Shown here piece after piece: positions 3 through 64,000 of a stretch of DNA of 64,000 nt. This DNA comes from a virus: the IMG/VR virus record IMGVR_UViG_3300028844_006119, positions 32,001-96,000 of that record, one strand, 5' to 3'. How positions within the stretch are numbered: position 1 is the first letter of the stretch; each line of letters starts with the position of its first letter. A program made the translations under genes and the position numbers. The notes beneath the pieces were generated by a model that was not told the origin of the DNA, made no database searches, and worked only from the letters and a program-made list of their open reading frames with translations.

Positions 3-473
3 TCCGCGTTGACCAGCAGGAACATTGCAAGCCTGCCTGACATTTTGGCCCCTAAGGGGTGGAAGCCTAAGCCCGCCTCAGAAGGGGGGTACCTGTGGGA
101 GTACGACGCAGGCACCAGCGCCAAGGACATCAAACTCACCGGCGGGTTCCACTCCAACGCCGTCACGGGGAAGAGCCACATAGGCCTTAAGGGGGTCTCT
201 GAGATCTCCGAGGTCGGGCAGAAGCTGAAGTTTGGCTCTCGTCTGGAGTTCCTGGACCTAGAGACGACCCGGGAGCTGGGCTCTCGTTTGATGCCCGAGG
301 AGAAGGTGACCCTTGGCGAAGACACCTCAATCCGACTAGACCCTAGAGCGCCCCGCGCGAAGAGGGTTACCGAGTACTTGCAGGATATTGGTGGAACTTC
401 TGCTCTCCGTAAGTTAGACTTTGGGTCTACTGGATTTACTACGACGCCGGACGGCCGAGGAGGAAAAGGATGA
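3..473 (+). CDS. Hypothetical protein, 5'-truncated by the window edge
   Basis: Frame is open from position 3; its TGA overlaps the next ATG (ATGA). Confidence 0.6.
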   Translation, partial: SALTSRNIASLPDILAPKGWKPKPASEGGYLWEYDAGTSAKDIKLTGGFHSNAVTGKSHIGLKGVSEISEVGQKLKFGSRLEFLDLETTRELGSRLMPEEKVTLGEDTSIRLDPRAPRAKRVTEYLQDIGGTSALRKLDFGSTGFTTTPDGRGGKG

Positions 474-706
474 TTTCTCAGGACATGCTTCAGGCATTCA
501 ATGAGGCGCTGCTCAAGGAAGCTGTTGCCCCTCCGGCTGCGGCAGCGAAGATGAGTGGCAAGATGAAGGGACTTCTGGGCCTCGGAGCTGCTGCCGGCGT
601 GGGAGCGGGAGTTCTCGGAGAGCAGGCCAAGGATGATATCGTCCAAGGACGGCTGTCCAGAAAGCAGATGGCTCGCGGCCAGGGCGTTCACCACCTGCTT
701 ACCTGA
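470..706 (+). CDS. Small KxA-motif, glycine-zipper protein (putative virion cargo)
   Basis: GAGG/GGA-rich upstream; N-terminal AFNEALLKEA followed by GLLGLGAAAGVGAGVLG. Confidence 0.65.
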   Translation: MISQDMLQAFNEALLKEAVAPPAAAAKMSGKMKGLLGLGAAAGVGAGVLGEQAKDDIVQGRLSRKQMARGQGVHHLLT

Positions 707-46679: not shown

Positions 46680-46757
46680 GGGCTATGCCTCCTATTAAGT
46701 GCCAAATTTGTTATGACGCGGTATGGTAAGATCTACATGCTCGTCCGGAGTTTCCAC
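46680..46757. promoter_or_regulatory. Divergent promoter region between replication and head blocks
   Basis: AT-richer gap between divergent starts; TTATGAC at 46711-17. Confidence 0.55.
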
Positions 46758-47936
46758 ATGTCTGTAATCGACCACCATGACGACCTATGCGAGTCCTTCC
46801 TGGCCTCTGTAGACCCCAATCAGGTGTCTGAGATCATGAAGACCTCTTCCTGGAGGGAGTCCTCGGACCTCCTGGACCGGGACTTTGCGCTCATCCTGGT
46901 GGACGAGGTCGGCAAGGAGCACAGGAAGTTTGCCTGTTTCGACTCCGGCAATGCGCTGATGTCGGAGTGGTACCTTTTGCACGCTGAGCACGGCCTAGAC
47001 AGCGACTCCGTCAAGACCGCCGCCGCCAACATCGTAGACTCCCTGGAGCACTACGGACTGACCCCTGCACCCGCTTCCGTTTACCTGGCAGACCGTACTT
47101 CCGGGGCAGATTCTCGGAGGGTTAAGGTAGCTGGGGCTCCAATGTCTGACTCCCACAGCTCTATTCGCGCCGCAAAGGGTGGGGCGATTGGGGGAGCAGC
47201 TCTGGGAGCGATTTCTGGAGCTAAGGGAGGGGGGACTCCTCTTCAGATCGCCGGTCGGATGCTAGGCAGAGGCGCCGCAGTGGGCACCGCTGGCGCGCTG
47301 GGAGTGGGCGGTATGGACTACACAGCCAAGAACGCCTCGGCGTTTGACTACGTAGCAGACGCTGCCGCTTCGTGGGACGACCTCGATCCGTACGACAGAC
47401 ACGAAGTTGCTGTAAATCTGGTGAAGGTCGCCTCCGCAGGCGGAGCAACCGTTCCTGGCCACATTCGCGCCTACAGCGGCACTTCCTTGAGCCCGAACTT
47501 CAAGAAGATCGCAGAGGCCCGCAGGGACTTCACCTCCCAGCAAGACACCCAGGACGGGTACACGCGGTTGTCGAAGATGGCCGCGGCCATGGACCCTGAT
47601 GATGTCGTCGAGGCCATGTACCTCCTAGACGAGCAGGCCCAGATCAACCACCGCTACGGAAGTCGCATCCCCGACCCAGTTCTGTCCGTCTATGGCACCA
47701 CCAAGGAGGCAGAGTTCTCCTGGACCCACGGCGGCGACTATGTGAACGAGAGGATGCTAAAGAGGTACGCGGGCAGCGATTCCTCCCAGAAGATGGAAGA
47801 TGTCTTCACCGATGATCTCAAGGATCTCTTTCGGAGAGACCCCATCTCTGTGTTCAAGCGGATGCCCGACGAGCAGAAGATCCTCCTCGCTAGAATGGCC
47901 TCCCAGTCCCGAGATAACAATAACGGCGGATACTGA
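46758..47936 (+). CDS. Putative head (core/scaffold-type) protein with multiple KxA sites and a glycine-zipper cassette
   Basis: GGAG RBS before ATG 46758; 8 of 18 Lys are in K-x-A (hand count); upstream of portal. Confidence 0.6.
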   Translation: MSVIDHHDDLCESFLASVDPNQVSEIMKTSSWRESSDLLDRDFALILVDEVGKEHRKFACFDSGNALMSEWYLLHAEHGLDSDSVKTAAANIVDSLEHYGLTPAPASVYLADRTSGADSRRVKVAGAPMSDSHSSIRAAKGGAIGGAALGAISGAKGGGTPLQIAGRMLGRGAAVGTAGALGVGGMDYTAKNASAFDYVADAAASWDDLDPYDRHEVAVNLVKVASAGGATVPGHIRAYSGTSLSPNFKKIAEARRDFTSQQDTQDGYTRLSKMAAAMDPDDVVEAMYLLDEQAQINHRYGSRIPDPVLSVYGTTKEAEFSWTHGGDYVNERMLKRYAGSDSSQKMEDVFTDDLKDLFRRDPISVFKRMPDEQKILLARMASQSRDNNNGGY

Positions 47937-48727
47937 TGTCCTTGTTCAAGGACGAGCAGGCTCATCCATTGATCCTCCTCAGGAAGTACCTGGGGATGTT
48001 CGGCATTGACGCCCTGGAGTGGGAGCCGCCCGTGATCAAGAGCTCGGTAGAGGATGAGACGGGGACTTCAATCGCCCGGATCAACCTGCTGAAGCTCATG
48101 GCCGCCATCGCCGTGGCCAATCACGATTCGTTCTGGAAGGACTGGCAGACGTTCCACTTCCTTACCGCTGCCTTGAACAACAACATCCCATCCGCCGCAG
48201 TCCTGTCGGATCAGACCGTGGGACAGATGATGACCGCGGTAGACATCGCGAACACCATACGTAAAGACTTGGGGAAGGCCACGTCAGTGCCTTCCTTTGG
48301 GGAGAAAGTCGCTCGGTACATCGCAGCGCAGGCCCTCGAGTCTGGAATTTGGTACCTGCCGTCCCCTCTAGGCTTCGCAAACAAGTACTGTGCCGGGCTC
48401 ATGCAGCGGTGCGGGAGATGCAGTAATGAGGAGGAGCGTCAGGATGACGGGCTCTGTAGTTATTGTACGGAGAGGTACAGCATGGACTCCCTGCAGAAGA
48501 TGGAGCCAGATCCCGACCTGGCAGGGCAATGGGACGCATCTAAGGTGAAGCCTTTTACCCTGCACCCATACGAGGGAGTAAGTCAGCGCCTGACCGAAGC
48601 TCTCACCCATAAGGACGTGGTCCTGGGGGAGACTCAGGATGACATCTGCGCCGCTAAACTGCTGACCGGACTGGAGTACATGAGCTATAGAAGGGCTCAA
48701 CTCAGGTCTCAAGGGGCGACTCAGTGA
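47936..48727 (+). CDS. Hypothetical head-module protein with Zn ribbon
   Basis: CGRC...CSYC; TGATG overlap. Confidence 0.6.
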   Translation: MSLFKDEQAHPLILLRKYLGMFGIDALEWEPPVIKSSVEDETGTSIARINLLKLMAAIAVANHDSFWKDWQTFHFLTAALNNNIPSAAVLSDQTVGQMMTAVDIANTIRKDLGKATSVPSFGEKVARYIAAQALESGIWYLPSPLGFANKYCAGLMQRCGRCSNEEERQDDGLCSYCTERYSMDSLQKMEPDPDLAGQWDASKVKPFTLHPYEGVSQRLTEALTHKDVVLGETQDDICAAKLLTGLEYMSYRRAQLRSQGATQ

Positions 48728-49689
48728 TTTCCAGCGGCTCCCTCTTTTTCTTCAGCGACGAAATACAAAAGTGTGCAGGCATGCCTGCGCCTCAGCAAGC
48801 GCAGCAACCTGAGAAGAAACAGAGCTTTCTCTCCAGGAACAAGATGACTTTGGGAGCCGGCGCTCTTGCCGCAGGGATGATCCTAAAGAACCCCCAGGCA
48901 GCCTCCAAGTACCTGGGCCAAGTGAAGCAGATGGTCACTAACCCTAAGGCAGCCCTTCAGCGTGGCTGGAGATCTGGCTCATCCAACATCACCGGCAAGG
49001 TCCCCGGGGCCTCCGAGTCGGCGTCCAAGAGAGTCAGACTGTACAAGGACGTCTTAAGCTCGGCCGAGCAAGGCAAGCTTCAGTCCGTCAAATCCCTCGA
49101 CACTATTGGCGCGGGGGGAACTTCTGCGAGAGCTTCGGGCTGGGGAAGCGCGGGTAGGTCGTTCAGTAGAGCAGGACAAGAGCTAAAGATGTCCCCCGAT
49201 CTCACTAAGAGAGTGGGAGACATGCAAGCCAAGCTCAAGGCCGGAGAAGAAGTCTCAGAGCAAGCCTTGAAGGGCCTTTATGCTGAGATTCAGGGTGCTG
49301 GAAAGGGCCTTAAGATGAGGAAGGGCCTGTCGTACTATGCCCCTGGAGAGCGTACGATGATGACAGGTCTGGGCACAGGTCTGGGGGCAACGGCGGGCCT
49401 TGAGACCCACGATGCGGAAACAGGACGCAAGAGGGGCGTGGCGGAGCGAGTTGCTCGCGGGACTGTCGGTGCTGCGACTGGCACCGCGATGTCCTCCCTA
49501 TTCATGGGACGAGGCGCAAGGCTCAGCAGCAAGAACTTATTCACAGGAAATAGAGGCTCTCTGCTCAGCCAAAAGGGACTTCTGCCAGTCGCGGCAACGA
49601 CTCCCCTACTGGTGGGTACTGAGGCCGCTGGGGAGGTCGCGGGGAAGGGCGGAGAGCTGGCCGACAGAGCCTTTGGACAGAAATCATGA
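48724..49689 (+). CDS. Basic Gly/Ala-rich KxA-motif protein (putative virion cargo)
   Basis: FFSDEIQKCAG leader; LGAGALAAG, GLGTGLGATAG, GTVGAATG segments. Confidence 0.6.
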   Translation: MISSGSLFFFSDEIQKCAGMPAPQQAQQPEKKQSFLSRNKMTLGAGALAAGMILKNPQAASKYLGQVKQMVTNPKAALQRGWRSGSSNITGKVPGASESASKRVRLYKDVLSSAEQGKLQSVKSLDTIGAGGTSARASGWGSAGRSFSRAGQELKMSPDLTKRVGDMQAKLKAGEEVSEQALKGLYAEIQGAGKGLKMRKGLSYYAPGERTMMTGLGTGLGATAGLETHDAETGRKRGVAERVARGTVGAATGTAMSSLFMGRGARLSSKNLFTGNRGSLLSQKGLLPVAATTPLLVGTEAAGEVAGKGGELADRAFGQKS

Positions 49690-51788
49690 ACGTAGTTTCT
49701 AGCGAATCAAACCGATTCAACCCGCGCCCTGTCGACTATGAGGGTGGCCGGGGCTTCGGCATTCGCTACCCGTCCCCCTTCTTCGATGTCGCGCAGCAGT
49801 TTCTTCCGTCCGACGTACACCAGCTCCATCACTGGTGTCGGTACTACTTTCTGACCAACCCGGTTATCAACGCTGCCTGCTCCAAGATGGCGGAGTACCC
49901 CGTCACTCCTCTCGTCTTTGAGACGGAAGACCCCAAGCTGGTAGAGCTGGGCAAGTCCCTAGAAGATCAGCTAAAGCTGCGATCTTTTCAGGTTGAAGTC
50001 GGACTAGACTACTTTGTCTACGGAAATGCGTTCATCTCGCTGTTCTTCCCGTTTGAGAAGTACCTCCTCTGCCCGAAGTGCAAGGAGCGTTACCGCGCCA
50101 GCAAGAACCGCTTCAGATACAAGTGGCGGAGCGGTCGCTTCTATCTGAAGGAGTGCAAGTGCGGGTACCAGGGGTACGCGAAGCAGCAGGATGTCTACAT
50201 CCGCAGCGCGCGCGACATTCGCCTGGTTCGGTGGAATCCAGAGAACGTCAACATCAAGTACAACGAGATCACAGGTAAGGCGAAGTACTACTTCAAGCTG
50301 CCTCGAGCGATCGCCAACGATATCAAGTTGGGCGACGCGGACACGATCGAGACGCTACCCCTTGAGTTCCTAGAGGCTGCCCGTAAGAAGAAGTCCCTCC
50401 TGTTTACTCAGGACAACCTCTATCACTTGAAGCGTCCGACGATTGCCCAGAAGGATCAGGGCTGGGGCACTCCCCTGATCTACCCCTTGCTGAAGGACGC
50501 GTTCTACCTGCAGGTCATGAAGAAGGCGAACGAGGCGGTCCTCATGGAACACATCGTTCCTATGAGGATACTCTTCCCTGGGCAGAGCACGGGCGGGAAT
50601 GAGGGTCCATACGGATCCTATAACCTGAGCAACTGGAAAAAGAAGGTAGACGCTGAGATCAACATGTGGCGTCGGGACCACAACTACATCCCAGTTCTGC
50701 CCGTGAACGTCGGGTTCCAGCAGATCGGCGGACAGGGCCGAGCCCTTCTGATGTACCAGGAGATGCGTCTTCTTTCGGAGCAGATGCTCGCGGGCGCAGG
50801 AATCCCTGTCGAGTTCATCTTCGGCGGGCTTCAGTGGAGCGGGTCCAGCACCTCCCTCCGGGCTCTGGAGAACATGTTCCTGGGGTACAACAAGCAGCGC
50901 CATGAGCTCGTAAACAAGTTCATCGTGGAGAAGGTTTGCTCCTTCATGCGTTGGCCCAAGATCTCGGTGCGCTTTGACAAGTTCAAGATGGCCGACGATC
51001 TGCAGAGAAGCATGTTCTACCTGCAGCTCAACCAGGCGCAGAAGGTCAGTGACCGCAGGCTGCTTGAGGAGATCGGAGAGAACTTCGATCTCGAGAACGA
51101 TCGCATGATGTCCGAGCTAAAGAAGAACCTTCAGACGCAGCGCACCATGCAGGTCGCCGGTGCTGACGTTCAGGGAGAGATCCAGCTTCGCACTTCCCGG
51201 TACCAGGCTAAGTCTCAGTCCCTAATGGCGAAGGCACAGGCCGAAGTCCAGATGGAGATGCAGAAGAAGCAGCTGGAGATGCAGCAGCAGATGCAGCAGC
51301 AGGTGCAGCAGGGTGCAAACCCTCAACAGGTTCAGGCGGCGCAGCAGGCGGCGCAGCAACAACAAGGCGCAGCAGCACAGGCCGCCCCGCAAGGTCAGGC
51401 TCAGCAGGGCGGAGGTCAGGCTCAGCAGACTCCCGGTATGCCGGACGGGGCCACCGCGTACGATGAGAACGCGAAGTCTCCTAACGACACGGGGATGCCC
51501 GCAGCTATGGCGGGTATGACTTCTCAGATCCAGCAGGGAGCTGGAGGAGTAGACCTTCGATACATCGCCCAGAGAGCCGCGGCGTTCTTGAAAACGGTCA
51601 AGAAGGAGCAGGGCCCTGAGGCCATGTACAAGTCTTTGGCCGAGATGCAAACCGGCAATCCGAATCTCTATCAGCTGGTTGTCCAGCTATTGAACGATAC
51701 AGGATCTAAGGAAAATCCCCAGAACGCCCAGGCGGCCCCCAAGCCTAACGGGAATCCGCAAGCGGATATTTCCCGTCAGGTGGGGTAG
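49686..51788 (+). CDS. Portal protein
   Basis: YFLTNPVINAACSKMAEY, DYFVYGNAF, YHLKR...GWGTPLI, AGAGIPVEFI, V.FDK; Gln-rich C-terminal tail. Confidence 0.8.
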   Translation: MNVVSSESNRFNPRPVDYEGGRGFGIRYPSPFFDVAQQFLPSDVHQLHHWCRYYFLTNPVINAACSKMAEYPVTPLVFETEDPKLVELGKSLEDQLKLRSFQVEVGLDYFVYGNAFISLFFPFEKYLLCPKCKERYRASKNRFRYKWRSGRFYLKECKCGYQGYAKQQDVYIRSARDIRLVRWNPENVNIKYNEITGKAKYYFKLPRAIANDIKLGDADTIETLPLEFLEAARKKKSLLFTQDNLYHLKRPTIAQKDQGWGTPLIYPLLKDAFYLQVMKKANEAVLMEHIVPMRILFPGQSTGGNEGPYGSYNLSNWKKKVDAEINMWRRDHNYIPVLPVNVGFQQIGGQGRALLMYQEMRLLSEQMLAGAGIPVEFIFGGLQWSGSSTSLRALENMFLGYNKQRHELVNKFIVEKVCSFMRWPKISVRFDKFKMADDLQRSMFYLQLNQAQKVSDRRLLEEIGENFDLENDRMMSELKKNLQTQRTMQVAGADVQGEIQLRTSRYQAKSQSLMAKAQAEVQMEMQKKQLEMQQQMQQQVQQGANPQQVQAAQQAAQQQQGAAAQAAPQGQAQQGGGQAQQTPGMPDGATAYDENAKSPNDTGMPAAMAGMTSQIQQGAGGVDLRYIAQRAAAFLKTVKKEQGPEAMYKSLAEMQTGNPNLYQLVVQLLNDTGSKENPQNAQAAPKPNGNPQADISRQVG

Positions 51789-52605: not shown

Positions 52606-55600
52606 ATGGCAAACCTGGCTCCAGGGGACGCATACCGCCTCCTCGAAGAAAGAACCAAAGAAGCCATCAAGAGTCACTTCCCGGTCGAAGGCCGAGAAAA
52701 CAGACTCGAGTTGGTAGATATTTCCACGGATGAGGATGCCTCCTCTGCGTCTGGAAAGCACCACAGCTACAACCACACGTCTCAGACGGACGCAAAGCTC
52801 CATGACAGAACATGGGGTCCCAACATCGTAGGGACGTTCCGGCTCGTAAACATGGAGACGGGTAAGGTCGTAGACCAGGGGAAGCGCACCCTGGGCCAGC
52901 TGCCTAAGATCACCAGTCGGTACAGCTACATCGTTGAGGGGAACGAACGTCAAGTCGACAGCGTCTTCCGCCTTAACCCCGGCGCCTATCACGTAGAGGC
53001 CGACAACGGAGATCTTCTTGCGAAGTGGAACGTCGCCGCAGGATCCAAGGTTGGTTCGTTCAAGATCTCCATTGAGCGTAAGCATCCCAAGAAACTGGGG
53101 GCCATGTACCTGATTGTGAAGAGTGGCACGCAGTCTACTCGCAAGATCCCGGCGTACGGAATCCTCTCCGCCCTGGGAGTATCCGACCCTGCTATGCGCA
53201 AGGCGTGGGGAGAATCCGTATTCGAGGTAAACCGCAGGATCTCCAAGCCCAACGACCTTCTAAACTTTCACGAAGCGGTGGAGAAGCGCCGAGCGGGCAA
53301 GGATAAGTACGAGACGCCTACCCTCTCCGAGGCCCGCAAGTTTGCGAAGGAAGTCTTCGAGGGCGCAGAAGTAAACCCCGATACGATGCTTGCTACGCTG
53401 GGCAAGAAGTTCACCAACATCTCTGGGGACGCTCTCCTGGCCTCCTCGGCCAAGGTGGTGGGAATTAGCAAGGGGACCGCGGAGCCTGACGACAGACAGT
53501 CTCTCTCCAACAAGCGCCTCTTCGGGATGGAAGATTTCATCCACGAGGAGATCTCTAAGGGATCGTCTCGGTTCGAGATGCAGAAGAAGATCCGGAACAA
53601 CCTCGATCGTAAGGGCAAGATCTCAGACATTCTTCCGGCTGCGTCCGTGGGGTATGGGAGGCTGATCACGCGCAAGTTCAAGGCTGCCCAACTTCCGACC
53701 CAGACAAATCCCCTTCAGTTCGTGTCTAACCACACGAAGACGACCATTCTCGGTCAGGCGTTTGGCGGAATTAAGGGAGACAATGTCAACCTTGATCGAG
53801 ACAAGCTGATCAATCCCTCTCACTTGGGGCTGCTTGATCCTCTGCAGACACCAGAGAACACCTCTACCGGCGTCTCGCTGCACATCCCAATCGGGGCCAA
53901 TAAGAAAGGTCAGCAGCTTTACACAAAAGTCCTGAACGTAAAGACCGGGAAGTTCGAGAATAAAAACGCAGCGGAGATGGAGAAGGCCGTCGTTGCATAC
54001 CCCGACCAGGTGAAAATCACCCGCACGAAGACCGGAGCCACAGTCCGGCCCCTGCACCCCGACGTTGTCGTCTATGACTCAGACCGCAGCACGGCCAAGA
54101 GGCCCTGGAAGGACGTCCAGTACGTTCTTCCCAACGCAAAGACACTATTCTCGGTTAGCGCAAACATGATCCCGTTCGTTCAGAACGACAACGGGAACCG
54201 AGCCATGATGGCCGCTAAGCACCAGGAGCAAGCAGTCTCTCTGAAAGACCGAGAAGCCCCGCTGGTTCAGGCTGAATTTGCGGGAGGGGTCTCATTCGAC
54301 CAGATGATCGGCAAGTTGAACTCTACTACCGCTAGTGTGGCCGGAACTGTGTCGAGAATCACCAAGGATTCTGTTTACATAAAGGGCGCGGCAGGAAAAG
54401 CGGTGTCCCACCCGATCTACAACCACCATCCCCTCAACGGCACGAAGCACATGATGCATTCGACTCCGGTTGTGAAGGTGGGAGACAAGGTAAAGGTTGG
54501 ACAGCTCATCGCCGACTCTAACTTCACCAAGGACGGCACCCTATCCTTGGGTACGAATCTTCGCGTCGGGTATCTGCCGTACAAGGGCTACAACTTTGAG
54601 GACGGGACCGTCATCTCGGAGACTGCCGCCAAGAAGTTGGTGTCCACCCATCTCCACATCGAAGAAGCGGAGATGTTCGCCAACGTAGTCGTAAACAGGA
54701 AGCTGTGGAGAAACTTCGCTGGGGCCAACAAGGCCACGGCAGAAGTGATGAGCAAGCTGGACGAGGATGGCGTCATCAAGGAGGGAGCCAAGGTAGTTCC
54801 CGACGATGTGTTGATCACTCGGCTGGTCAAGGCGGAGATGACTCGAGAGAACCAGGACGTCAAGAGGTCCCTGAAGAAGGCTATCCGGGACTACAAAGAC
54901 GCCGCAGTGGTCTGGAAGCATGAGTACGGCGGCACTGTCGTTCGAGTCGTCAAGACTGCGAAGAAGATCCAGGTTCATATCCGCACTGAGCAGACAATGG
55001 AGCCCGGAGATAAGCTGTCGGGGCGTCACGGTAACAAGGGAATCATCACCAAGATCCTGCCTGACGATATGATGCCCAAGGATAAGAGCGGGAAGCCCGT
55101 CCATGTCCTGATGAGCCCCGCAGGCGTCCCATCCCGTATGAATGTCGGGCAGGTCCTGGAGACGGCTGCAAGTAAGATTGCCCGCAAGACGGGAAAGTCG
55201 TACAAGATCGAGAACTTCGATGCCTCCGTTGATTACTCCCAGAAGATTAAGGATGAGCTCAAGAAGCACAATCTTTCCGATACGGAGGAGCTTTTCGATC
55301 CCGAAACCGGAGAGTCTCTCGGGCAGATCTTTACGGGTGAGCAGTACATGCTCAAGCTGGACCACCAGGCCGAAAAGAAGGTGTCTGCCCGATCTGGAGG
55401 ATCTGGGTATGCCTATCGGCCCACCGGCGAGGCAATCTCCGGTTCGGGCATCGGGAAGGGCGGGCAACGAATTGGTGGCCTAGACACCTACGCTCTGCTG
55501 GCACACGGAGCCAAGAGAAATCTGATGGAGATGCAGACCTACAAGTCTGACTCCGAGCAGGCCCGGGATGTCTGGATTCGGGTGATGCAGGGACAGCGTC

Positions 55601-58600
55601 CGCCTCCCCCCAAGGTCCCTACCTCGATGGAGCACTTCAAGAAGTACCTACGGGCTACGGGGGTCTATGCCGAGGAGACTGGCGGTGTGTACTCCCTGTC
55701 TCCCATGACGGATGCTCAGACCCTAGGGCAGAGTAAAGGCGCGCTCGTAGCGGCGGATAAGACGCTGGTGGCAAAGGGGATGCTCACCAAGGAAGAAAAG
55801 GGCGGCCTGTTTGATAGGGGCAAGACCGGAGGCATGGAGGGCAAATTCTGGTCCCACATCGACATGAAGACCCGGATGCCCAACCCAATGTTTGAGACCG
55901 CAATCCAGTCTCTGCTCGGCCTAAAAAAGGCGGAGTTTGAAAAGCTGGTCTCCGAAAACGGAGCCGTGGGGAAGAAGTCCGGGTTCCAGATCATTGAGGA
56001 GCGTCTGCGCGCCATCAAGGTTCCCTCCGAGCTAAAGAAGGCGGAAGAGGAGCTGAAGACCGCTAAGAAGGCGGACCTCAACAAGAAGTACAAGAAGGTC
56101 CGGTATCTTCGCGCGCTGAAGGAGCTCAAGACCTCTCCGGTAGACGCCTATACGAACCAGCATCTCCCAGTGCTGCCTCCCATCTTGAGGCCGGTAAAGA
56201 TTGGATACGACGGCACACAGATGATTGATGCCGCGAATCAGTACTACGCCATGATCGGCCAGATGACCAAGCAGGTAGAGCAGGGGAAGAAGGAGGGGCT
56301 GCCGAAGGCCGACATCTTCAAGAGAGAAGCGCAGCTATACGACCTGGTCCGTGCGTTGCGCCTGAATGGCATGACTCAGGAAGGCAGGGAGCTTCCCAGT
56401 CTGATGGACAAGATGACGGGCTCGAAGCCCAAACACTCATTCTTTCAGCAGGGTGTTCTGTCGAAGCGGCAGGACTTGTCGGGCCGGACGGTCGTTACCC
56501 CAGAGCCCGCATTGAAGATGGACCAGGTGGGCATCCCTGTCGATATGGCGATGGAGACGTACAAGCCGTTCGTCATCAGAGAGCTGTGGCGTCGTATGGG
56601 AATCGCCAAGAGCCCTGGCGAAGCAAGACGCATGATCAAGAAGAACCACCCCTCCGCCAAGAAAGCGTTGGAGAGGGTGATTACTCAGCGTCCAGTAATC
56701 ATGAAGAGAGACCCTGCGCTTCATATGTTTTCTACTATGGCCTTCAAGCCAGTTCTTGTGCCGGGGAAGTCGATCAAGATCCACCCACTTGTGTGCGGCG
56801 GCTTCAACGCGGACTTCGATGGCGACACCATGGCCATGTATGTGCCCGTGACTGAGGAAGCTGCGGAGGAGGCCCTGGAGAAGATGCTCCCGTCTAAGAA
56901 CCTGTTTTCCCCCACACACGGGGGCCTCATGTTGACCCCCAGCCAGGATGCCGTTCTCGGCATCTACCAGGCTACAAAGTGGGGCAAGAAGGTTCCTGGA
57001 ATCCTTACGGAGGAGCAGGCGCTTCAGCAGCTGAAGAACGGAAAGTTGAAGTCTGACAACGTCATCACGGTCAAGGGCCACAAGAAGCCTACGACTGCGG
57101 GAAGACTGCGGATCAACAAGACCCTGCCCGGCAGCGTAAAGAATGATCCCGAGCTTCTATACGATCCCAAATTCCGCATGGCCAAGGGCGCTATGAAGGG
57201 ATTCGCAACTCGAGTAGCCCAATCCGATCCGGATGAGTTCTCCGGCATGATCGACGGATGGAAGGAGTTGGGGTTCACGCTGTCATATAAGAACGGTAGT
57301 TCGTTCAGCCTGAATGATTTTCACGACGGTAAGACCATCCGAGACAACGTCCTGAAGAAGTACAAGAAGGAAGAGAATGTGATTCGCAAGTCTGGTATTT
57401 CTCGTAAAAAGAAGGACCAGAAGATTATCGCCCTGTACCAAAAAGCAGGCGAGGAACTCAAGGTTATCGGGCAGGCCCACTACAAGGCTAAAAAAGACAA
57501 CCGTATGTGGGAGTGGGCTGAAAGCGGTGCGCGAAGCAACTGGGGCCAGTTCGGTCAGTTGGTCATGGGGCCCATGCTTGTGCAGAACCCCTCCAAGGAG
57601 TTTGTGCCTGTACCGCTCACTACCTCGTTTGGGGAGGGGCTCCCGATCTCTCAGTACTGGGCAGCGCTGCATGGCGCCCGAAAGGGAACCCTGGATCGCG
57701 CAGCAGGAACTAGAGACCCCGGAGCGCTCACCAAGGAGTTGATCAACACAGTCATTGCGTACTCTGTGACCGACAAGGACTGTGGTACTTCCAAGGGCAC
57801 TCTGATGTCCGTCATGGCGAAGGACATCGAGGGCAGGTACCTGGCGCGCGAGGTGCCCCTGAAGAGCGGGGACAAACTGACCCGTGGAACCCTGGTCAGC
57901 TCGGCATTGTTGACCAGGATGAAGAACTCCGGCCCCCAGAAGGTCCTGGTGCGCTCCCCTCTTCACTGCCAGCAGGCAACGGGCATTTGCGCCACTTGCT
58001 ATGGGCTTAACGAGAGAGGAACTCTCTACAAAAAGGGAACCAACGTTGGCATCATTGCCGGCCATGCCCTCGGAGAGCCAGTCACTCAGATGCAGATGCG
58101 GACGTTCCACACGGGCGGCGCCGGAACCGACGGGCTGACGGATTACTTCCAGCAGGCAAAGGACCTCTTCAAGGTGCCCGAGAAGCTACGAGGTGCCGCT
58201 ACGTTGGCGGAGGTCACCGGCAGGGTAGATAAAATCGAGACGGATGCCCTTGGCGGTAAGAAGGTCACGATTGGCGGAAAGCTGCACGTTGTCCCCCACT
58301 CGACCCCACTCCTCCCGAAGATTAGGGTCGGGGCGGACGTGAAGAAGACAGACGCGCTCTCTGTTGGTCGGAAAAATCCGCACGACATCCTTCGGATCTC
58401 CAACAACATCCATGCTGTCCGCAATCACCTCACGACAGAGCTAGACTCTCTGTACGTAGAGACTACGGGGAACGAGAGGCGGAGGAACATCGAGACGGTG
58501 ATCCGTGCGATGACCGATGTTGCGCAGGTGACCGAAAGCTCTGAGCACGAGAACCTGCTCAATGGGCAGATGATGTCTCTTTCCCGGATTGAGAACAGGA

Positions 58601-58944
58601 ACAAAGAGCTGAAGAAGTTGGGACTCCCCACCATCCAGCACAAGCCTCTGCTGAAGCCTATGGACAAAGTCCCGCTTTCCGGTAAAGAAGACTGGATGGC
58701 GCGACTAAACTTCCAGAGGCTTAAGGACACCCTTATCGAGGGCGGGGCACAGAACTGGAAGTCAGATATCCAGGGTCACCCCATCCCAGGCCTGGCGCAT
58801 GGTGCGGCGTTTGGACTGCAAGCCCCAAAGACCGCAGCCATAAGCTCCCCTTTCCCCAAGCCCCCCAAACCTGTTAAACTTCCGGCACCTGTGCCTGCCG
58901 CCCCGCAGGGCATCTTCGGGTCCTTCTTTGGAGCAAAGTCATGA
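52606..58944 (+). CDS. rpoBC: Fused beta-beta' (RpoB-RpoC) DNA-directed RNA polymerase, single 2112-aa chain
   Basis: Beta motifs QTPE, NRAMM, GYNFED, GDKLSGRHGNKG, PSRMNVGQ, YMLKLDH, GGQRIG; beta' motifs LPVLPPILRP, KRQDLSGR, NADFDGD (56806-56826), PSQD, HGARKG, RSPLHC, CATCYG, GEPVTQMQMRTFHTGG; no internal stop. Confidence 0.96.
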   Translation: MANLAPGDAYRLLEERTKEAIKSHFPVEGRENRLELVDISTDEDASSASGKHHSYNHTSQTDAKLHDRTWGPNIVGTFRLVNMETGKVVDQGKRTLGQLPKITSRYSYIVEGNERQVDSVFRLNPGAYHVEADNGDLLAKWNVAAGSKVGSFKISIERKHPKKLGAMYLIVKSGTQSTRKIPAYGILSALGVSDPAMRKAWGESVFEVNRRISKPNDLLNFHEAVEKRRAGKDKYETPTLSEARKFAKEVFEGAEVNPDTMLATLGKKFTNISGDALLASSAKVVGISKGTAEPDDRQSLSNKRLFGMEDFIHEEISKGSSRFEMQKKIRNNLDRKGKISDILPAASVGYGRLITRKFKAAQLPTQTNPLQFVSNHTKTTILGQAFGGIKGDNVNLDRDKLINPSHLGLLDPLQTPENTSTGVSLHIPIGANKKGQQLYTKVLNVKTGKFENKNAAEMEKAVVAYPDQVKITRTKTGATVRPLHPDVVVYDSDRSTAKRPWKDVQYVLPNAKTLFSVSANMIPFVQNDNGNRAMMAAKHQEQAVSLKDREAPLVQAEFAGGVSFDQMIGKLNSTTASVAGTVSRITKDSVYIKGAAGKAVSHPIYNHHPLNGTKHMMHSTPVVKVGDKVKVGQLIADSNFTKDGTLSLGTNLRVGYLPYKGYNFEDGTVISETAAKKLVSTHLHIEEAEMFANVVVNRKLWRNFAGANKATAEVMSKLDEDGVIKEGAKVVPDDVLITRLVKAEMTRENQDVKRSLKKAIRDYKDAAVVWKHEYGGTVVRVVKTAKKIQVHIRTEQTMEPGDKLSGRHGNKGIITKILPDDMMPKDKSGKPVHVLMSPAGVPSRMNVGQVLETAASKIARKTGKSYKIENFDASVDYSQKIKDELKKHNLSDTEELFDPETGESLGQIFTGEQYMLKLDHQAEKKVSARSGGSGYAYRPTGEAISGSGIGKGGQRIGGLDTYALLAHGAKRNLMEMQTYKSDSEQARDVWIRVMQGQRPPPPKVPTSMEHFKKYLRATGVYAEETGGVYSLSPMTDAQTLGQSKGALVAADKTLVAKGMLTKEEKGGLFDRGKTGGMEGKFWSHIDMKTRMPNPMFETAIQSLLGLKKAEFEKLVSENGAVGKKSGFQIIEERLRAIKVPSELKKAEEELKTAKKADLNKKYKKVRYLRALKELKTSPVDAYTNQHLPVLPPILRPVKIGYDGTQMIDAANQYYAMIGQMTKQVEQGKKEGLPKADIFKREAQLYDLVRALRLNGMTQEGRELPSLMDKMTGSKPKHSFFQQGVLSKRQDLSGRTVVTPEPALKMDQVGIPVDMAMETYKPFVIRELWRRMGIAKSPGEARRMIKKNHPSAKKALERVITQRPVIMKRDPALHMFSTMAFKPVLVPGKSIKIHPLVCGGFNADFDGDTMAMYVPVTEEAAEEALEKMLPSKNLFSPTHGGLMLTPSQDAVLGIYQATKWGKKVPGILTEEQALQQLKNGKLKSDNVITVKGHKKPTTAGRLRINKTLPGSVKNDPELLYDPKFRMAKGAMKGFATRVAQSDPDEFSGMIDGWKELGFTLSYKNGSSFSLNDFHDGKTIRDNVLKKYKKEENVIRKSGISRKKKDQKIIALYQKAGEELKVIGQAHYKAKKDNRMWEWAESGARSNWGQFGQLVMGPMLVQNPSKEFVPVPLTTSFGEGLPISQYWAALHGARKGTLDRAAGTRDPGALTKELINTVIAYSVTDKDCGTSKGTLMSVMAKDIEGRYLAREVPLKSGDKLTRGTLVSSALLTRMKNSGPQKVLVRSPLHCQQATGICATCYGLNERGTLYKKGTNVGIIAGHALGEPVTQMQMRTFHTGGAGTDGLTDYFQQAKDLFKVPEKLRGAATLAEVTGRVDKIETDALGGKKVTIGGKLHVVPHSTPLLPKIRVGADVKKTDALSVGRKNPHDILRISNNIHAVRNHLTTELDSLYVETTGNERRRNIETVIRAMTDVAQVTESSEHENLLNGQMMSLSRIENRNKELKKLGLPTIQHKPLLKPMDKVPLSGKEDWMARLNFQRLKDTLIEGGAQNWKSDIQGHPIPGLAHGAAFGLQAPKTAAISSPFPKPPKPVKLPAPVPAAPQGIFGSFFGAKS

Positions 58945-59363
58945 ACAAGATCGCCGCATACGAAATCGCACTCGAGAGAATCGAACTTGAGAAGCGGGCT
59001 GACTCCCTGGTGGAGGCCTACGGCACCAGTGAGGGCTACATGCCGGGTGCCTACCTTCAGGCGTTTGATCAGATCGAGAAGGAAGCCGGAATCCAGGCTA
59101 TCGCAAATATCGGGAGCCGCCTCTCAACAGCGGCGCGAGGCACCATTAAAGGGATGATGGGGAGCGGCGGGGCAGTAGTCCGAAAGGGCGGGAAGATGCA
59201 GCTTAGCAGGGGAGCCGGACTTGGGGACACGGCTAAGTACTACGGAGCTCGAGGCGTGCAGCGCGCGGGAAGATTCGCCATGCAGAATCCCGGCGCGACT
59301 GCAGCTGTTGGCGGGGTCGGAGGTGTCGGAGCTGCCGGCCTCGGGTACAAGGCTCTGAAGTAG
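58941..59363 (+). CDS. KxA-motif glycine-zipper protein (putative virion cargo)
   Basis: MNKIAA, LEKRAD, FDQIEKEAG; C-terminal AAVGGVGGVGAAGLG. Confidence 0.65.
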   Translation: MNKIAAYEIALERIELEKRADSLVEAYGTSEGYMPGAYLQAFDQIEKEAGIQAIANIGSRLSTAARGTIKGMMGSGGAVVRKGGKMQLSRGAGLGDTAKYYGARGVQRAGRFAMQNPGATAAVGGVGGVGAAGLGYKALK

Positions 59364-60564: not shown

Positions 60565-60797
60565 TGCCCCTCACCGGCACCGAAGATGCTCTCTCTGCTG
60601 CGATTAAGGCTAAGGTCCAGACTAATAACCCTGACTTTGCCAGTAAGATCGGGGATGATTGGGATTGGCTGTTTGACTCTATCGCCAAGGCGGTTGTAGA
60701 TCACGTCAGAGACAATATTTTGGTCGCCGGCACTACGGTTACGACGTGTGGTGCTGGTGCCGGTTCCGGTGTCTTCACCCACGTTTCCACTTCTTGA
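60564..60797 (+). CDS. Small spike-associated protein
   Basis: TAATG overlap; IAKAVVDHV pattern; directly follows the spike gene. Confidence 0.55.
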   Translation: MPLTGTEDALSAAIKAKVQTNNPDFASKIGDDWDWLFDSIAKAVVDHVRDNILVAGTTVTTCGAGAGSGVFTHVSTS

Positions 60798-60805
60798 GGA
60801 CTAAA

Positions 60806-62146
60806 ATGGCACAACTCCTATTTCTGCCTGATGTCGACCCGAATTCCTTTTTCGAGAAGGAGGCGTCGATCTCGAAGATGCCCGAGGACGAGAAGGATTG
60901 GCCCAGCCACATCCTGAGCATGCTGTACGAGCAGCTGCCCTTCCTCAGCAAGTTCTCGGTCAACATCATGATCCAGAGAATGGAGCCGGAGGCAGGATTT
61001 GCGTTTGGTTACGCCCTGGTTCTGTCTAAGAGCGATCCGCGGGTCTCCACTGAGTCCAAGAACGTTGAGAACGGGATCCGCATTCCTCTCATCGTGGCAG
61101 ATCGGCAGCTCCAGCCGTTCCATACCTTTGAGCTGAAGGGACAGGTCCGGCCCCTTACTCCTGAACGAGTCGCGGCTGCCATGATGAACCCCGCGATGTT
61201 CGACGGCCCGGCCACAAAGCCCGAGACTCAGAAGTCTCTCGTCGATCAGATGTACCCGCCCTACCAGCAGCGCCAGGGCTTCGGCATGACCAGCAGTGGA
61301 AATGCAGGAGGCATGGGTAAGGTCAGTTCTATGCCCCTCTCTGCTATGACGGCCCCACAGCTAAAGCAGCACGCCCGACTGAAGGAAACTGAGAGGGGAG
61401 ATGCCGCTGCGGCATCCATGACCAGCGGTCAGCGGCTGGAGCAGGCAGGAAGAGCTGCCATTGTCCCCACTGCTGCGGGTGCGTTGATCTCGGCAGGCAG
61501 AGGTGCCATGAAAGGCGGCGGGACTTGGAAAAACAGACTTGCCCGTGGGGCGGCTGGGGTCACTACCGGAGCCCTAACGGGTGCGGGAATCTCTGCAGTA
61601 AATACCGGAGTTCAGGAGTCCGCTAGAGTGGCACGGGATGCTCAGAGGGCTAAGTTGGCCTCCCGGATTAAGAAGGGTCTGCCTCCTGCGCTCGCCCGCA
61701 ACGCAGCAAAGGTAAAAGCAGTGCAGAATCCGGAGGCGGGCGCAGAGGTCCCTGCGGGGCTGCGGAAGAAGGGTTCGGTAAGGGAAGCCCACGTAAAGGA
61801 AGCACTGGCCCGCCTGGACTTCAATCCCAGCCGTAGGATTCCTTCAAACATGGTTATGAAGGGCTCTAAGGTCAAGGTGATGCCGGGCGTTACCGCCATG
61901 TCCCTGCGCTTCTTCCCCGTCATGGGAACAAAATTTGTAATAGGCGTGGATACCAAGCTGGCGAAGAAGCTCGGGAAGATGAAGGATCAGAATCAGATCC
62001 GGCAAGCACTAATGGGGCCCATGAAGGCGGAGATCCGGGCTGCGCGCGGTAAGCGCCCCTCCCCCGGAATGTTCATGCTCTTCTCCAAGACGAAGACGGG
62101 ATACGCGTACCAGGTTCCCACCCCCATCCCCGGGATGGCCGCGTGA
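60806..62146 (+). CDS. Modular putative head protein (globular N-domain plus Gly/Ala-rich basic cassettes)
   Basis: GAGGA RBS; FFEKEAS, GKVSS, AKLAS, VKEAL boundaries. Confidence 0.65.
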   Translation: MAQLLFLPDVDPNSFFEKEASISKMPEDEKDWPSHILSMLYEQLPFLSKFSVNIMIQRMEPEAGFAFGYALVLSKSDPRVSTESKNVENGIRIPLIVADRQLQPFHTFELKGQVRPLTPERVAAAMMNPAMFDGPATKPETQKSLVDQMYPPYQQRQGFGMTSSGNAGGMGKVSSMPLSAMTAPQLKQHARLKETERGDAAAASMTSGQRLEQAGRAAIVPTAAGALISAGRGAMKGGGTWKNRLARGAAGVTTGALTGAGISAVNTGVQESARVARDAQRAKLASRIKKGLPPALARNAAKVKAVQNPEAGAEVPAGLRKKGSVREAHVKEALARLDFNPSRRIPSNMVMKGSKVKVMPGVTAMSLRFFPVMGTKFVIGVDTKLAKKLGKMKDQNQIRQALMGPMKAEIRAARGKRPSPGMFMLFSKTKTGYAYQVPTPIPGMAA

Positions 62147-62961
62147 TTCCCTTCTACCCCAAGTTTGGAAGCCAGGAGGATGCTCCAGGGTATGGCCCTG
62201 CTGCGTCCGAGGATAAGTGCGAGAACTGCGCGCATTATCGTAACTTGGGGAACCAAGGGCACTGCGAGAAGTTCTCGTTTATGTGCCAGCCTGAGTACGC
62301 CTGTGACGACTTCCGGCCTTCGGGAGTAATCAAGGAGTCCAGCGTGGTTGCGGAGGCTGCGGCCCTCCCCCGGAAGAAGGTCGAGGCGGTACAGGACACT
62401 GCGCGTGCCCTAAAAGAGAGAAACATCTCTCGAGCCCTGAACTCTGCCCAAAAAGACCTGATGCCGGGGAGATACGACAAGGCCATTGAGAACCTAAAGC
62501 ATCTATACCCCAAAGAGGCTGCTTCTCCTTTCATGCAGGGACTCGATCCTCTTGCAGGGGAGGTCGCCCGGGGAGCTATCCGGGATCGGCTGAATCCCGA
62601 CGTCTCTTCGGAGGAAATGACCCGCAGACGGAGACTCGCGACGCTGGGCGGAGTAGTCGGAGGCGGAGTCCTGGTCCCTGGCGCAGTCTCCGCTGTCCTA
62701 GGGGCCGGTGTTGGAGCTATGGGGAATAGAGGGTTGGGGAGAGTTACGGGAGCCGCGCGCCAGGCAGGGCGGGCTCTGCGAGGAACCTTTACCCGGGCAG
62801 GAAGTCCTGCTCTTATTGCCGGGGCAGGGATCGGAGCAATGGGGGCTCGCTCCCAATACGATTTAGGGGCGGGGCTTGCCGAGCTTGCCGCCGAGAAGCA
62901 CGCCTCTACCGACCACAGCTTGCGGTCTTTTCTTAGGAAGAATCATGAACAAGAACGCTAA
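62143..62961 (+). CDS. Modular protein with a HiPIP-like 4-Cys segment and a glycine-zipper cassette
   Basis: GY.....CENCAHY......C......PEYACDDF; PKEAAS...EKHAS flank a Gly-rich hydrophobic hairpin. Confidence 0.6.
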   Translation: MIPFYPKFGSQEDAPGYGPAASEDKCENCAHYRNLGNQGHCEKFSFMCQPEYACDDFRPSGVIKESSVVAEAAALPRKKVEAVQDTARALKERNISRALNSAQKDLMPGRYDKAIENLKHLYPKEAASPFMQGLDPLAGEVARGAIRDRLNPDVSSEEMTRRRRLATLGGVVGGGVLVPGAVSAVLGAGVGAMGNRGLGRVTGAARQAGRALRGTFTRAGSPALIAGAGIGAMGARSQYDLGAGLAELAAEKHASTDHSLRSFLRKNHEQER

Positions 62962-64000
62962 GGTCTTTGGGGCCACCCACGACTCCGACAGAGCGAACAA
63001 TGCGGCCATCCCCTACTCTGGTAGGCGGCGGGAATATGTTCTCTACCTCAATGCGAAGTCTAAGGAATCCCCCACCAAGCTGGTTACGGCGCTCCTAACT
63101 GGGGCAGGTCTCGGAGGACTGGCGGGAGGACTTGCCGGCCTTGGTGGGGGCGCGAAAGGTGCCCTAGTTGGTATCCTTGCTGGGGCCCTTGGTGGCTCCC
63201 TCTTCGGCGCCCTGGCTAAGGCCATCGATGATGGGAACATTCAAGAGGCTAAGCGCATCCTCCGTAAGGGCCACATCGACCAGGGGCTTGGGGAAGCCAT
63301 CATGCGAAACCAGCGAGCCAAGGAACAGGTGGCCCGGAGCAGACACTCCGAGACCCAACGCCGTCTCTCTGGAATCGAGAGAGGTATGAGTCGAGCCAGC
63401 AGCTACCCACACCGTAGTCGTAGGGTCACTGTGAAGGTCGGATCTCTTTGTTCCAAGATCGCAGGTACCTTGAACGAGTCCGACTTCGAGCGCTTCAATG
63501 AGGTGTTTTCCGACGCCAATACTCGACGAATGATTGAGAAGAACGCCTCCGTCATGGAGTGCCTCACCCTCCTGACTGACTCGGAGATTCACAGCACCGA
63601 CAAGATGGCTTCGGCGGCGGCCTCGGCATTCACGATGGGCTACGACGTGGTCCAGGTGAGACCTTCCGGCTACGGCTACACAGTCAAGGTGTCCGCTGCT
63701 CCGCAGGGCGTGGCCCCGCAAGAAACCCAGATGACTCAGCAGCAGGCTCAGCAGGCTCTTCCTCCTGAGATGCTTCAGGCTGCAGACCAGCAGGGCGCTG
63801 GCACGGTCACCAACGTGCAGGCAGACCCCGATCCGCTCGCGGAGAAGATGGCGCCGGCTACCGGGTTCGGCCTCTACAAGGTCACCGATGCTACTTCAGG
63901 CAAGCAGGTCGTTGGCTATGTCATTCCCGGACTGTTTGATCCGGTCTCGGGACAGCCCTCGCAGGTGAGCCTGTTCACCAACGGCTCCGCATACTGCGTG
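62945..64000 (+). CDS. Modular putative head protein, 3'-truncated (not in ORF track)
   Basis: Hand translation open for 352 codons: MNKNAKVF...GAGLGGLAGGLAGLGGGAKGALVG...KVGSLCSKIAGTLNESDF...EKNAS...DKMAS... Confidence 0.75.
   Translation, partial: MNKNAKVFGATHDSDRANNAAIPYSGRRREYVLYLNAKSKESPTKLVTALLTGAGLGGLAGGLAGLGGGAKGALVGILAGALGGSLFGALAKAIDDGNIQEAKRILRKGHIDQGLGEAIMRNQRAKEQVARSRHSETQRRLSGIERGMSRASSYPHRSRRVTVKVGSLCSKIAGTLNESDFERFNEVFSDANTRRMIEKNASVMECLTLLTDSEIHSTDKMASAAASAFTMGYDVVQVRPSGYGYTVKVSAAPQGVAPQETQMTQQQAQQALPPEMLQAADQQGAGTVTNVQADPDPLAEKMAPATGFGLYKVTDATSGKQVVGYVIPGLFDPVSGQPSQVSLFTNGSAYCV

Follow-up and report, generated by a model that had tools for sequence, protein, structure and literature searches.

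What is a basic, glycine- and alanine-rich segment doing between the two folded domains of an acidic phage protein, and does it leave that protein again? The question is raised by a window of 64,000 nucleotides (nt), bases 32001-96000 of the 142,186-bp IMG/VR record IMGVR_UViG_3300028844_006119 (77% complete according to CheckV), whose source is a relative of Salmonella phage Arash, myovirus-like and uncultured. The segment, which we call the cassette, lies in an open reading frame (ORF) at 46713-47936, where coordinates 47124-47336 encode K138 to S208. The product, hereafter the carrier, is a conserved two-domain acidic protein of the head module, its association with the head being suggested by gene position and motif load. 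We give roughly equal weight for and against the reading, the likeliest of those considered, that the carrier's inter-domain linker is excised by an assemblin-fold prohead protease at K-x-A sites, so that a basic peptide with glycine zippers is set free as cargo inside the head.

The gene and the parts of its product, numbered in amino acids (aa) of the whole ORF, are as follows.

46758..47936, + strand: carrier protein gene (P0001 family), 392 aa from the likely start ATG 46758 (M16 of ORF 46713-47936), assigned from the start context and 59 homologues.
46758..47132, + strand: acidic N-terminal folded domain, aa 16-140, ending in a nearly invariant D-x-R-R-V; predicted local distance difference test (pLDDT) 70-87 for aa 52-128; charge -11.
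47124..47132, + strand: upstream candidate protease site K138-V-A140, placed by the order-to-disorder boundary and homologue counts.
47133..47333, + strand: cassette, aa 141-207, 67 aa, basic and Gly/Ala-rich, delimited by composition and the AlphaFold2 model; it holds no internal K-x-A.
47169..47225, + strand: zipper 1, aa 153-171, with the G-x-x-x-G register G156/160/164/168/172, its Gly columns invariant in five cassettes.
47265..47312, + strand: zipper 2, aa 185-200, a second Gly/Ala stretch that comes after an amphipathic connector (hydrophobic moment, muH, 0.52).
47325..47333, + strand: downstream candidate protease site K205-N-A207, then S208-A209, matching the motif's preferences for Ser at P1' and Ala at P2'.
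47334..47933, + strand: acidic helical C-terminal domain, aa 208-407, beginning at a nearly invariant S-x-F/Y-D.

The true start of the gene is probably ATG 46758, which is favoured by a GGAG 7 nt upstream and by the N-termini of the homologues (MPVIDHHDDL). Bounded by RRVKVA at the front and AKNA↓S at the back (here and below, ↓ marks a candidate cut), the cassette is 48% Gly plus Ala, with a net charge of +4 and an isoelectric point (pI) of 10.4, and is flanked by sequences with net charges of -11 (pI 4.7, N-terminal) and -8 (pI 5.0, C-terminal). An AlphaFold2 model built from a 30-sequence alignment gave pLDDT values below 50 for exactly residues 140-207, with confidently folded parts on either side. 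The abrupt switch from an acidic protein to a basic Gly/Ala-rich segment, described in a first-pass annotation of the window, is thus borne out by charge, pI and pLDDT, although the cassette is 67 rather than 68 aa long.

Alignment of the carrier's 59 homologues, all metagenomic, resolved two conserved blocks, the first ending in D-x-R-R-V and the second starting with S-x-F/Y-D. The linker that joins them can be as short as 3 aa or as long as about 390, and all of the length variation in the family falls at this site; in the longer forms (P0042, P0044, P0047, P0048, P0050, P0052 and P0060) the surplus residues lie exactly in the linker, which is the family's one insertion-tolerant place. Its contents differ from member to member, and include short Ser/Thr-rich pieces, low-complexity stretches of Met/Pro/Gly or of Pro/Met/Ser, a ...LIGEDGPEAVVPL... 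motif in two members, and Gly-zipper-like stretches. A net positive charge is the one linker property constant in almost all homologues, so that a DNA-associated internal peptide fits as well as a membrane role does, and the charge argues equally for DNA binding or for charge neutralisation. The linker slot of P0017 (L020:10523) and P0033 holds a motif, ...ALIGEDGPEAVVPL..., in place of the zipper. The GE-x-GPE motif of these two linkers, which is common among phage tape-measure and tail proteins, has no other occurrence in the studied genome.

The edges of this linker were compared in the 41 homologues in which both anchors could be located. A K-x-A lies no more than 8 aa after RRV in 31 of the 41, while a K-x-[AG] lies no more than 9 aa before the conserved Ser in 35 and immediately before that Ser in 28; both edges bear a site in 27/41. 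As background, 17% of all 9-aa windows in the family contain K-x-A. The edge site moves by 2-4 residues yet persists (RRVKVA, RRVYVKTA↓S, GKTAEAT↓S), and this drift with retention is the behaviour of a short linear motif, unlike that of a structural residue. The first-pass annotation had named two findings that would speak against its proposal of a releasable cassette, namely a cassette conserved as an integral part of the fold in all homologues, or indel boundaries unrelated to K-x-A. The alignment that it proposed shows neither: the cassette is an indel in a single hypervariable linker, and K-x-A sites lie at or near the edges of that linker in most homologues.

Beyond the carrier, K-x-A-[S/A/G] is a real, directional motif specific to the head module. 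In an unbiased scan of gapped dipeptides, K-x-A comes out on top for the head-module proteins and ranks far lower elsewhere in the genome. The counts for the head-module proteins, which exclude a 2112-aa RNA polymerase, are these.

K-x-A: 86 seen, 40.7 expected, z 8.1.
K-x-A[SAG]: 45 seen, 11.6 expected, z 10.3.
A-x-K (the reversed motif): 39 seen, 40.5 expected, z -0.3.

No excess was found for R-x-A, K-x-G or K-x-S in the same proteins, nor for K-x-A in the rest of the genome, where K-x-A[SAG] occurs 53 times against 42.9 expected. The motif has flanking preferences for I/F/L at P5, E at P4, S at P1' (4.2-fold) and A at P2'. The head-module proteins of Arash have the same top gapped dipeptide (47 seen against 22 expected, z 6.3). 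Taken as a cleavage signal, K-x-A before a small residue is probably the recognition site of the phage's prohead protease, which would cut after the Ala.

Several proteins carry a concentrated load of K-x-A[SAG]. The carrier has 5 where 0.6 would be expected, and carrier homologues at 27-31% identity keep an excess of K-x-A (6-8 seen against about 0.5 expected). A 302-aa protein has 8 K-x-A[SAG] where 0.7 would be expected, and the remaining proteins with an excess are the protease itself, a scaffold-like protein, two small proteins and a 685-aa protein at 62876. In the major capsid protein the motif lies near the N-terminus (STKTA↓AAS) and is retained in relatives down to Arash, whose protein is 26% identical (LVKEA↓GAA), and in the family of a 321-aa protein a conserved N-terminal leader, F-S-D/E-E-I/L-x-K-x-A↓G, ends in the motif. 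The gene for this last protein is fused to that of its 263-aa neighbour in a 164.6-kb relative (L010:11028-12941); the resulting 637-aa ORF reads ...ATKTA↓G where the leader of the second protein ends, and looks like a natural polyprotein junction. The 302-aa protein (genome 103486-104394; in window numbering 71486-72394, past the window's end) has 11 K-x-A sites, the densest load in the genome, and looks made for cutting into pieces of ~25 aa.

A candidate for the enzyme that would read this motif is a 657-aa protein (genome 105219-107192; in window numbering 73219-75192, also past the window's end) encoded five genes upstream of the capsid gene. It matches the PHROG head-maturation protease weakly (E 9.6e-5), and its His138 and Ser194 are invariant in 47 aligned protease sequences. 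The family counts 2279 representatives, of 283-1497 aa in total length, which have only an N-terminal domain of ~270 aa in common; the C-terminal part forms an apparent second hypervariable region. While a phmmer search of PDB sequences with the protease found nothing, its AlphaFold2 model (pLDDT 86) has as best structural match T4 gp21 (5JBL; Z 9.2, root-mean-square deviation 2.8 over 131 aa). Next in rank come entries for herpesvirus proteases, 35 in all (Z 5.6-8.2), and no unrelated fold scores above 4.9. Foldseek ranked the same families, T4 gp21 and the herpesvirus proteases, first. On this model the genome encodes a protease of the T4 gp21/herpesvirus assemblin fold. Herpesvirus assemblins cut (V/L/I)-x-A↓S, and the preference suggested here for Ala at P1 and Ser at P1' fits the assemblin fold better than it fits the Glu-specific phage enzymes. 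Three invariant Cys residues (C204, C207 and C218) lie beside the catalytic Ser, and are possibly a metal site.

Coupling these observations, we infer that the carrier is packaged in the head and cleaved at the two linker edges, that the peptide survives, and that it may act later. During head maturation, the protease would cut after Ala at both ends of the linker, parting the two domains and freeing the insert. For the phage studied here and the relatives nearest to it, that insert would be a basic peptide of 67 residues bearing two glycine-zipper stretches. The peptide would be kept in the capsid alongside the DNA as internal cargo and would probably exit with the DNA at infection. Such excised cargo matches the stand-alone mini-proteins of the same genome in which a K-x-A leader precedes a zipper. 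The polyprotein-style release put forward in the first-pass annotation accords in this respect with the indel linker, the K-x-A sites at its edges, the encoded protease and the head-specific motif, whereas the cleavage itself is a matter of interpretation.

Several points weigh against excision of a cargo peptide. One subclade (P0022, P0024, P0027, P0028 and P0031) has lost the upstream site, and the homologue counts are not counts of independent events. Three of the carrier's K-x-A sites (K72/A74, K288/A290 and K331/A333) are invariant and lie inside predicted helices or a strand, where the motif may also serve structure or binding. AlphaFold2 does not predict a helix for the cassette, nor do hydrophobicity scales predict a transmembrane segment. 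A whole-genome profile search found no member of the carrier family in Arash, the sole cultured relative with a virion proteome. Finally, the carrier as a whole may simply be degraded.

A specific form of this last point is that the carrier is a scaffold-like core protein chopped into small pieces that leave the capsid, as with T4 gp22, its linker being a tolerated insertion site and the zipper functionless after cleavage. The eight K-x-A sites spread along the carrier chain, four of them invariant across the family, are what such a fate would call for; the carrier is acidic and helical, like scaffolding proteins, and the linker content varies wildly, down to low complexity. What makes us regard this as a distinctly improbable account is the conservation of the zipper, which on sequence grounds is constrained and not junk. 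The cassettes of P0001 to P0003, P0004 and P0013 are only 33-34% identical, yet the i,i+4 Gly columns and the Ala that follows are invariant in them. Shuffling the cassette sequence yields a G(i,i+4) chain of length five in 9% of cases, so the register stands above chance through its conservation in diverged cassettes and not on the strength of single-sequence shuffles. Among three close relatives (the window, L007 and L030), divergence within the gene is lowest in the zipper core, with 0-5 differences per 60 nt against 6-20 elsewhere, and highest in the first 12 cassette residues. In addition, subclades far apart in the family have zipper-like stretches in this linker slot, and the genome holds the stand-alone leader-plus-zipper mini-proteins mentioned above, which suggests that the phage makes the zipper peptide as a product in its own right.

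Synonymous differences per codon are likewise lower in the cassette (0.09-0.12) than in its flanks (0.27-0.39), and mosaic recombination or a constraint at the nucleotide level could possibly account for the low synonymous rate of the zipper core. RNA structure was considered as a cause and rejected (z -0.6). Across the zipper core (window 47190-47336, L007:10424-10611 and L030:1155-1345), L007 and L030 differ from one another at 1 of ~190 nt. No paralogous nucleotide copy of the cassette was found within the genome.

Of the 60 family sequences scanned (the query and its 59 homologues), 13 have zipper-like stretches; these members belong to several subclades, and the stretches always lie in the linker or in an N-terminal extension. 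On a quick maximum-likelihood tree of 57 rows, from which three fragments were omitted, zipper presence and absence required 9 changes, at least 6 of them forced by well-supported branches; these repeated gains and losses are consistent with the suggestion in the first-pass annotation that such segments are swappable passengers. Conservation of the Gly register is an argument for packing of helix against helix and hence for self-association, which might take place in a membrane.

If the linker were left uncut, the carrier would remain one chain, and the zipper could serve in cis as a self-association element or as a weak membrane tether for a portal-adjacent assembly factor; T4 prohead assembly has a membrane-associated start. 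In every relative the carrier gene opens the + strand block containing the portal gene, a hairpin of two helices would keep the two domains on one side, the register of Gly residues is conserved, and zipper 1, with a mean hydrophobicity of 0.52 on the Eisenberg scale, is a borderline case for a multimeric membrane helix. About three quarters of the homologues have no zipper, however, and some have a linker of 20 aa, which makes a conserved role in cis unlikely. The low hydrophobicity and unfavourable octanol transfer of the cassette speak against a tether as well, and an uncut linker would account neither for the K-x-A sites at both edges nor for their drift with retention. We consider it unlikely that the linker stays intact, and return to excision as the preferred explanation.

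If the peptide is freed, does it act on membranes? The first-pass annotation proposed that the freed peptide and the other zipper cassettes of the genome are ejected and insert into the host membrane, where they would build or assist a channel for DNA entry or perturb the membrane. The Gly register of GxxxG type is conserved over five turns, and the sister cassette of the 685-aa protein reaches transmembrane hydrophobicity. The cassettes of carrier homologues resemble the Pfam glycine-zipper 2TM families below threshold, the best score being that of P0013 (E 0.19-0.7), whose 10-12 bits fall short of the 24-29 required. In virion preparations of Arash no protein is detected more than the RNA polymerase beta subunit (PMC10585845), so that the group may deliver large cargo from the head. 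Against these points, the maximum of the carrier cassette over 19 aa on the Kyte-Doolittle scale (KD19) is 1.00, below transmembrane thresholds, its Wimley-White octanol transfer is +9 to +13 kcal/mol and its Eisenberg mean hydrophobicity 0.39-0.52. None of the Pfam families PF05433, PF13488 and PF13441 matched P0001 or its cassette, even at E values up to 10. Moreover, what is constant in the linker across homologues is positive charge and not hydrophobicity, and a phage with a contractile-tail gene set has no obvious need of a peptide channel. A homo-tetramer prediction for the cassette (score 0.03, the fold of the peptide itself uncertain) points neither way, and the term 'glycine zipper' was not found in a literature search on phage ejection and capsid proteins. 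Membrane activity of the peptide is weakly supported, a role in an ejection channel or at the host membrane is speculation, and ejected channel-building or membrane-perturbing peptides seem to us quite improbable as an explanation of the locus.

Comparison with the Pfam families (PF05433, 'Glycine zipper 2TM domain', PF13488 and PF13441), whose transmembrane zippers follow (G/A/S)xxxGxxxG, illustrates both sides of this question. Like them, the cassette has two short Gly/Ala stretches with Gly residues in an i,i+4 register and a short joining loop. Unlike them, it falls under the Pfam thresholds, is less hydrophobic, and sits inside a cytoplasmically made phage head-module protein, while theirs is found in an outer-membrane lipoprotein.

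A wider version of the excision reading would make protease-bounded inter-domain linkers general 'passenger slots', whose inserts enter the prohead on a carrier and are then cut free. Zipper peptides delivered through the slot or behind a K-x-A leader would be injected, self-associating effectors that are active on membranes or organise DNA, and the protease would have acquired, in a lineage of phages, an Ala↓Ser specificity resembling that of herpesviruses. We think it rather unlikely that this whole construction holds.

Among systems already described, that of T4 is one of the closest, and the carrier cassette may be viewed as a variant on head cargo processed by a protease in the manner of T4 and phiKZ, with the release by the protease being the inferred part. 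As with the gp21-cut internal proteins of T4 (IPI-III and Alt, with their capsid targeting sequence) and its core proteins gp67 and gp68, a short motif recurs on many head-module proteins, some N-terminal leaders end in the motif, and the protease has the same fold (Z 9.2 to gp21). Small peptides derived from the T4 core proteins stay in the head. The differences are that T4 cuts after Glu (L/I-x-E), whereas here the motif is K-x-A before a small residue; that T4 cargo sits behind an N-terminal leader, whereas here the candidate cargo is nested between two folded carrier domains; and that the substrates share no sequence similarity. Multiple copies of a protease motif on many head proteins are also a feature of phiKZ (protease gp175) and Salmonella phage SPN3US (gp245; motif A-X-E). 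Phages of this type pack a virion RNA polymerase in the head (PMC10052503), and all identified SPN3US cleavages, at motif A-X-E, remove N-terminal propeptides, except for self-cleavage of the protease (PMC10052503). Excision of an internal linker piece would be a different layout, and P1 is Glu there and Ala here. The herpesvirus assemblins, finally, share the fold (Z 5.6-8.2, 35 entries), and their consensus matches the Ala at P1 and Ser at P1' suggested here; this is, however, a phage and not a herpesvirus, its motif prefers Lys at P3 and Glu at P4, and it would have dozens of sites in many substrates where the herpesvirus scaffold-protease precursor has two.

If excision of the linker is correct, it would extend the T4/phiKZ principle of protease-processed head cargo to a little-studied group (it includes Arash and Vibrio phages D69, D148 and D181), a trait of which is an RNA polymerase gene in the head block beside the portal gene. 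It would also add a new cleavage code, K-x-A before a small residue, that is near the assemblin specificity and bears on how specificity evolves within a shared protease fold. The layout would be new as well, with cargo in an excised carrier linker instead of behind an N-terminal tag, and the linker slot would be a natural, perhaps engineerable, route for loading peptides into capsids. For annotation, the density of K-x-A would predict which of the uncharacterised proteins of these phages are internal to the head.

The neighbourhood of the carrier gene fits a head module. On its 3' side follow genes for the 263-aa protein, the 321-aa protein, a 700-aa portal, the 2112-aa fused beta-beta' RNA polymerase and several proteins that are candidates for the virion interior. 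More head genes follow past the window's end, encoding the large terminase, the 657-aa candidate protease, a 322-aa acidic scaffold-like protein, small proteins and the 378-aa major capsid protein. The portal assignment is as follows.

49686..51788, + strand: portal protein; weak PHROG match; 31% identical to the portal annotated in Salmonella phage Arash (E 8e-82).

The closest cultured relatives, Arash with this 31% identical portal and Vibrio phages D69, D148 and D181, are all distant. A single 134-aa ORF separates the portal gene from the RNA polymerase (window 52606-58944), where beta and beta' domains of bacterial type share one 2112-aa ORF, arranged as in cells (Pfam Rpb2_6, E 1e-65, and Rpb1_2, E 4e-30); in Arash the beta and beta' homologues are two separate genes.

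The carrier itself belongs to no named family that we could find. A tblastn search of 50,697 phage records gave no match, no family was assigned by PHROGs, by Pfam or by a Pfam scan of 30 aligned members, and Foldseek with the whole carrier model found nothing in the PDB at E values of 0.001 or below. The same model retrieved two uncharacterised phage proteins from BFVD and nothing more. DUF6582 was rejected as an assignment: it appeared only in weak ESM Atlas rows (template modelling score 0.19-0.43, beside unnamed viral clusters) that Pfam did not confirm. Arash gp199, which has a similar gene position, was rejected as a homologue after comparison with the family profile in hhalign (probability 0.1).

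Gly/Ala-rich stretches beside K-x-A sites are also present in other ORFs of the window, which the first-pass annotation had described as comparable cassettes.

470..706, + strand: 78-aa ORF made up, in order, of the leader ...FNEALLKEA, a Gly zipper (LLGLGAAAGVGAGVLG) and a tail that is basic (from the translation); it overlaps the end of a 1328-aa gene by a few bases.
48724..49689, + strand: 321-aa protein with the leader FFSDEIQKCA↓G, kept in relatives, and Gly-rich stretches.
58941..59363, + strand: 140-aa protein with an acidic helical front bearing three K-x-A sites and a basic Gly-rich tail, as read from the sequence.
60746..62146, + strand: 466-aa protein whose interior holds a Gly/Ala stretch; its PHROG match, to an internal virion protein, is weak.
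62876..64000, + strand: start of the 685-aa protein with a Gly zipper; KD19 1.93; K-x-A[SAG] 6 seen, 1.2 expected.

These stretches are not demonstrably related to the carrier cassette: in local alignments against shuffled sequences their similarity to it reached z 1.3-2.6, not above what shared composition gives. The zipper of the 685-aa protein is the only one in the set that reaches transmembrane hydrophobicity. The ORF at 470-706 has the make-up of a stand-alone form of leader plus zipper cargo. A leader of the same type opens a 277-aa ORF at 958-1791, in the tail/baseplate block of the window (...LRDRLQKIA↓A).

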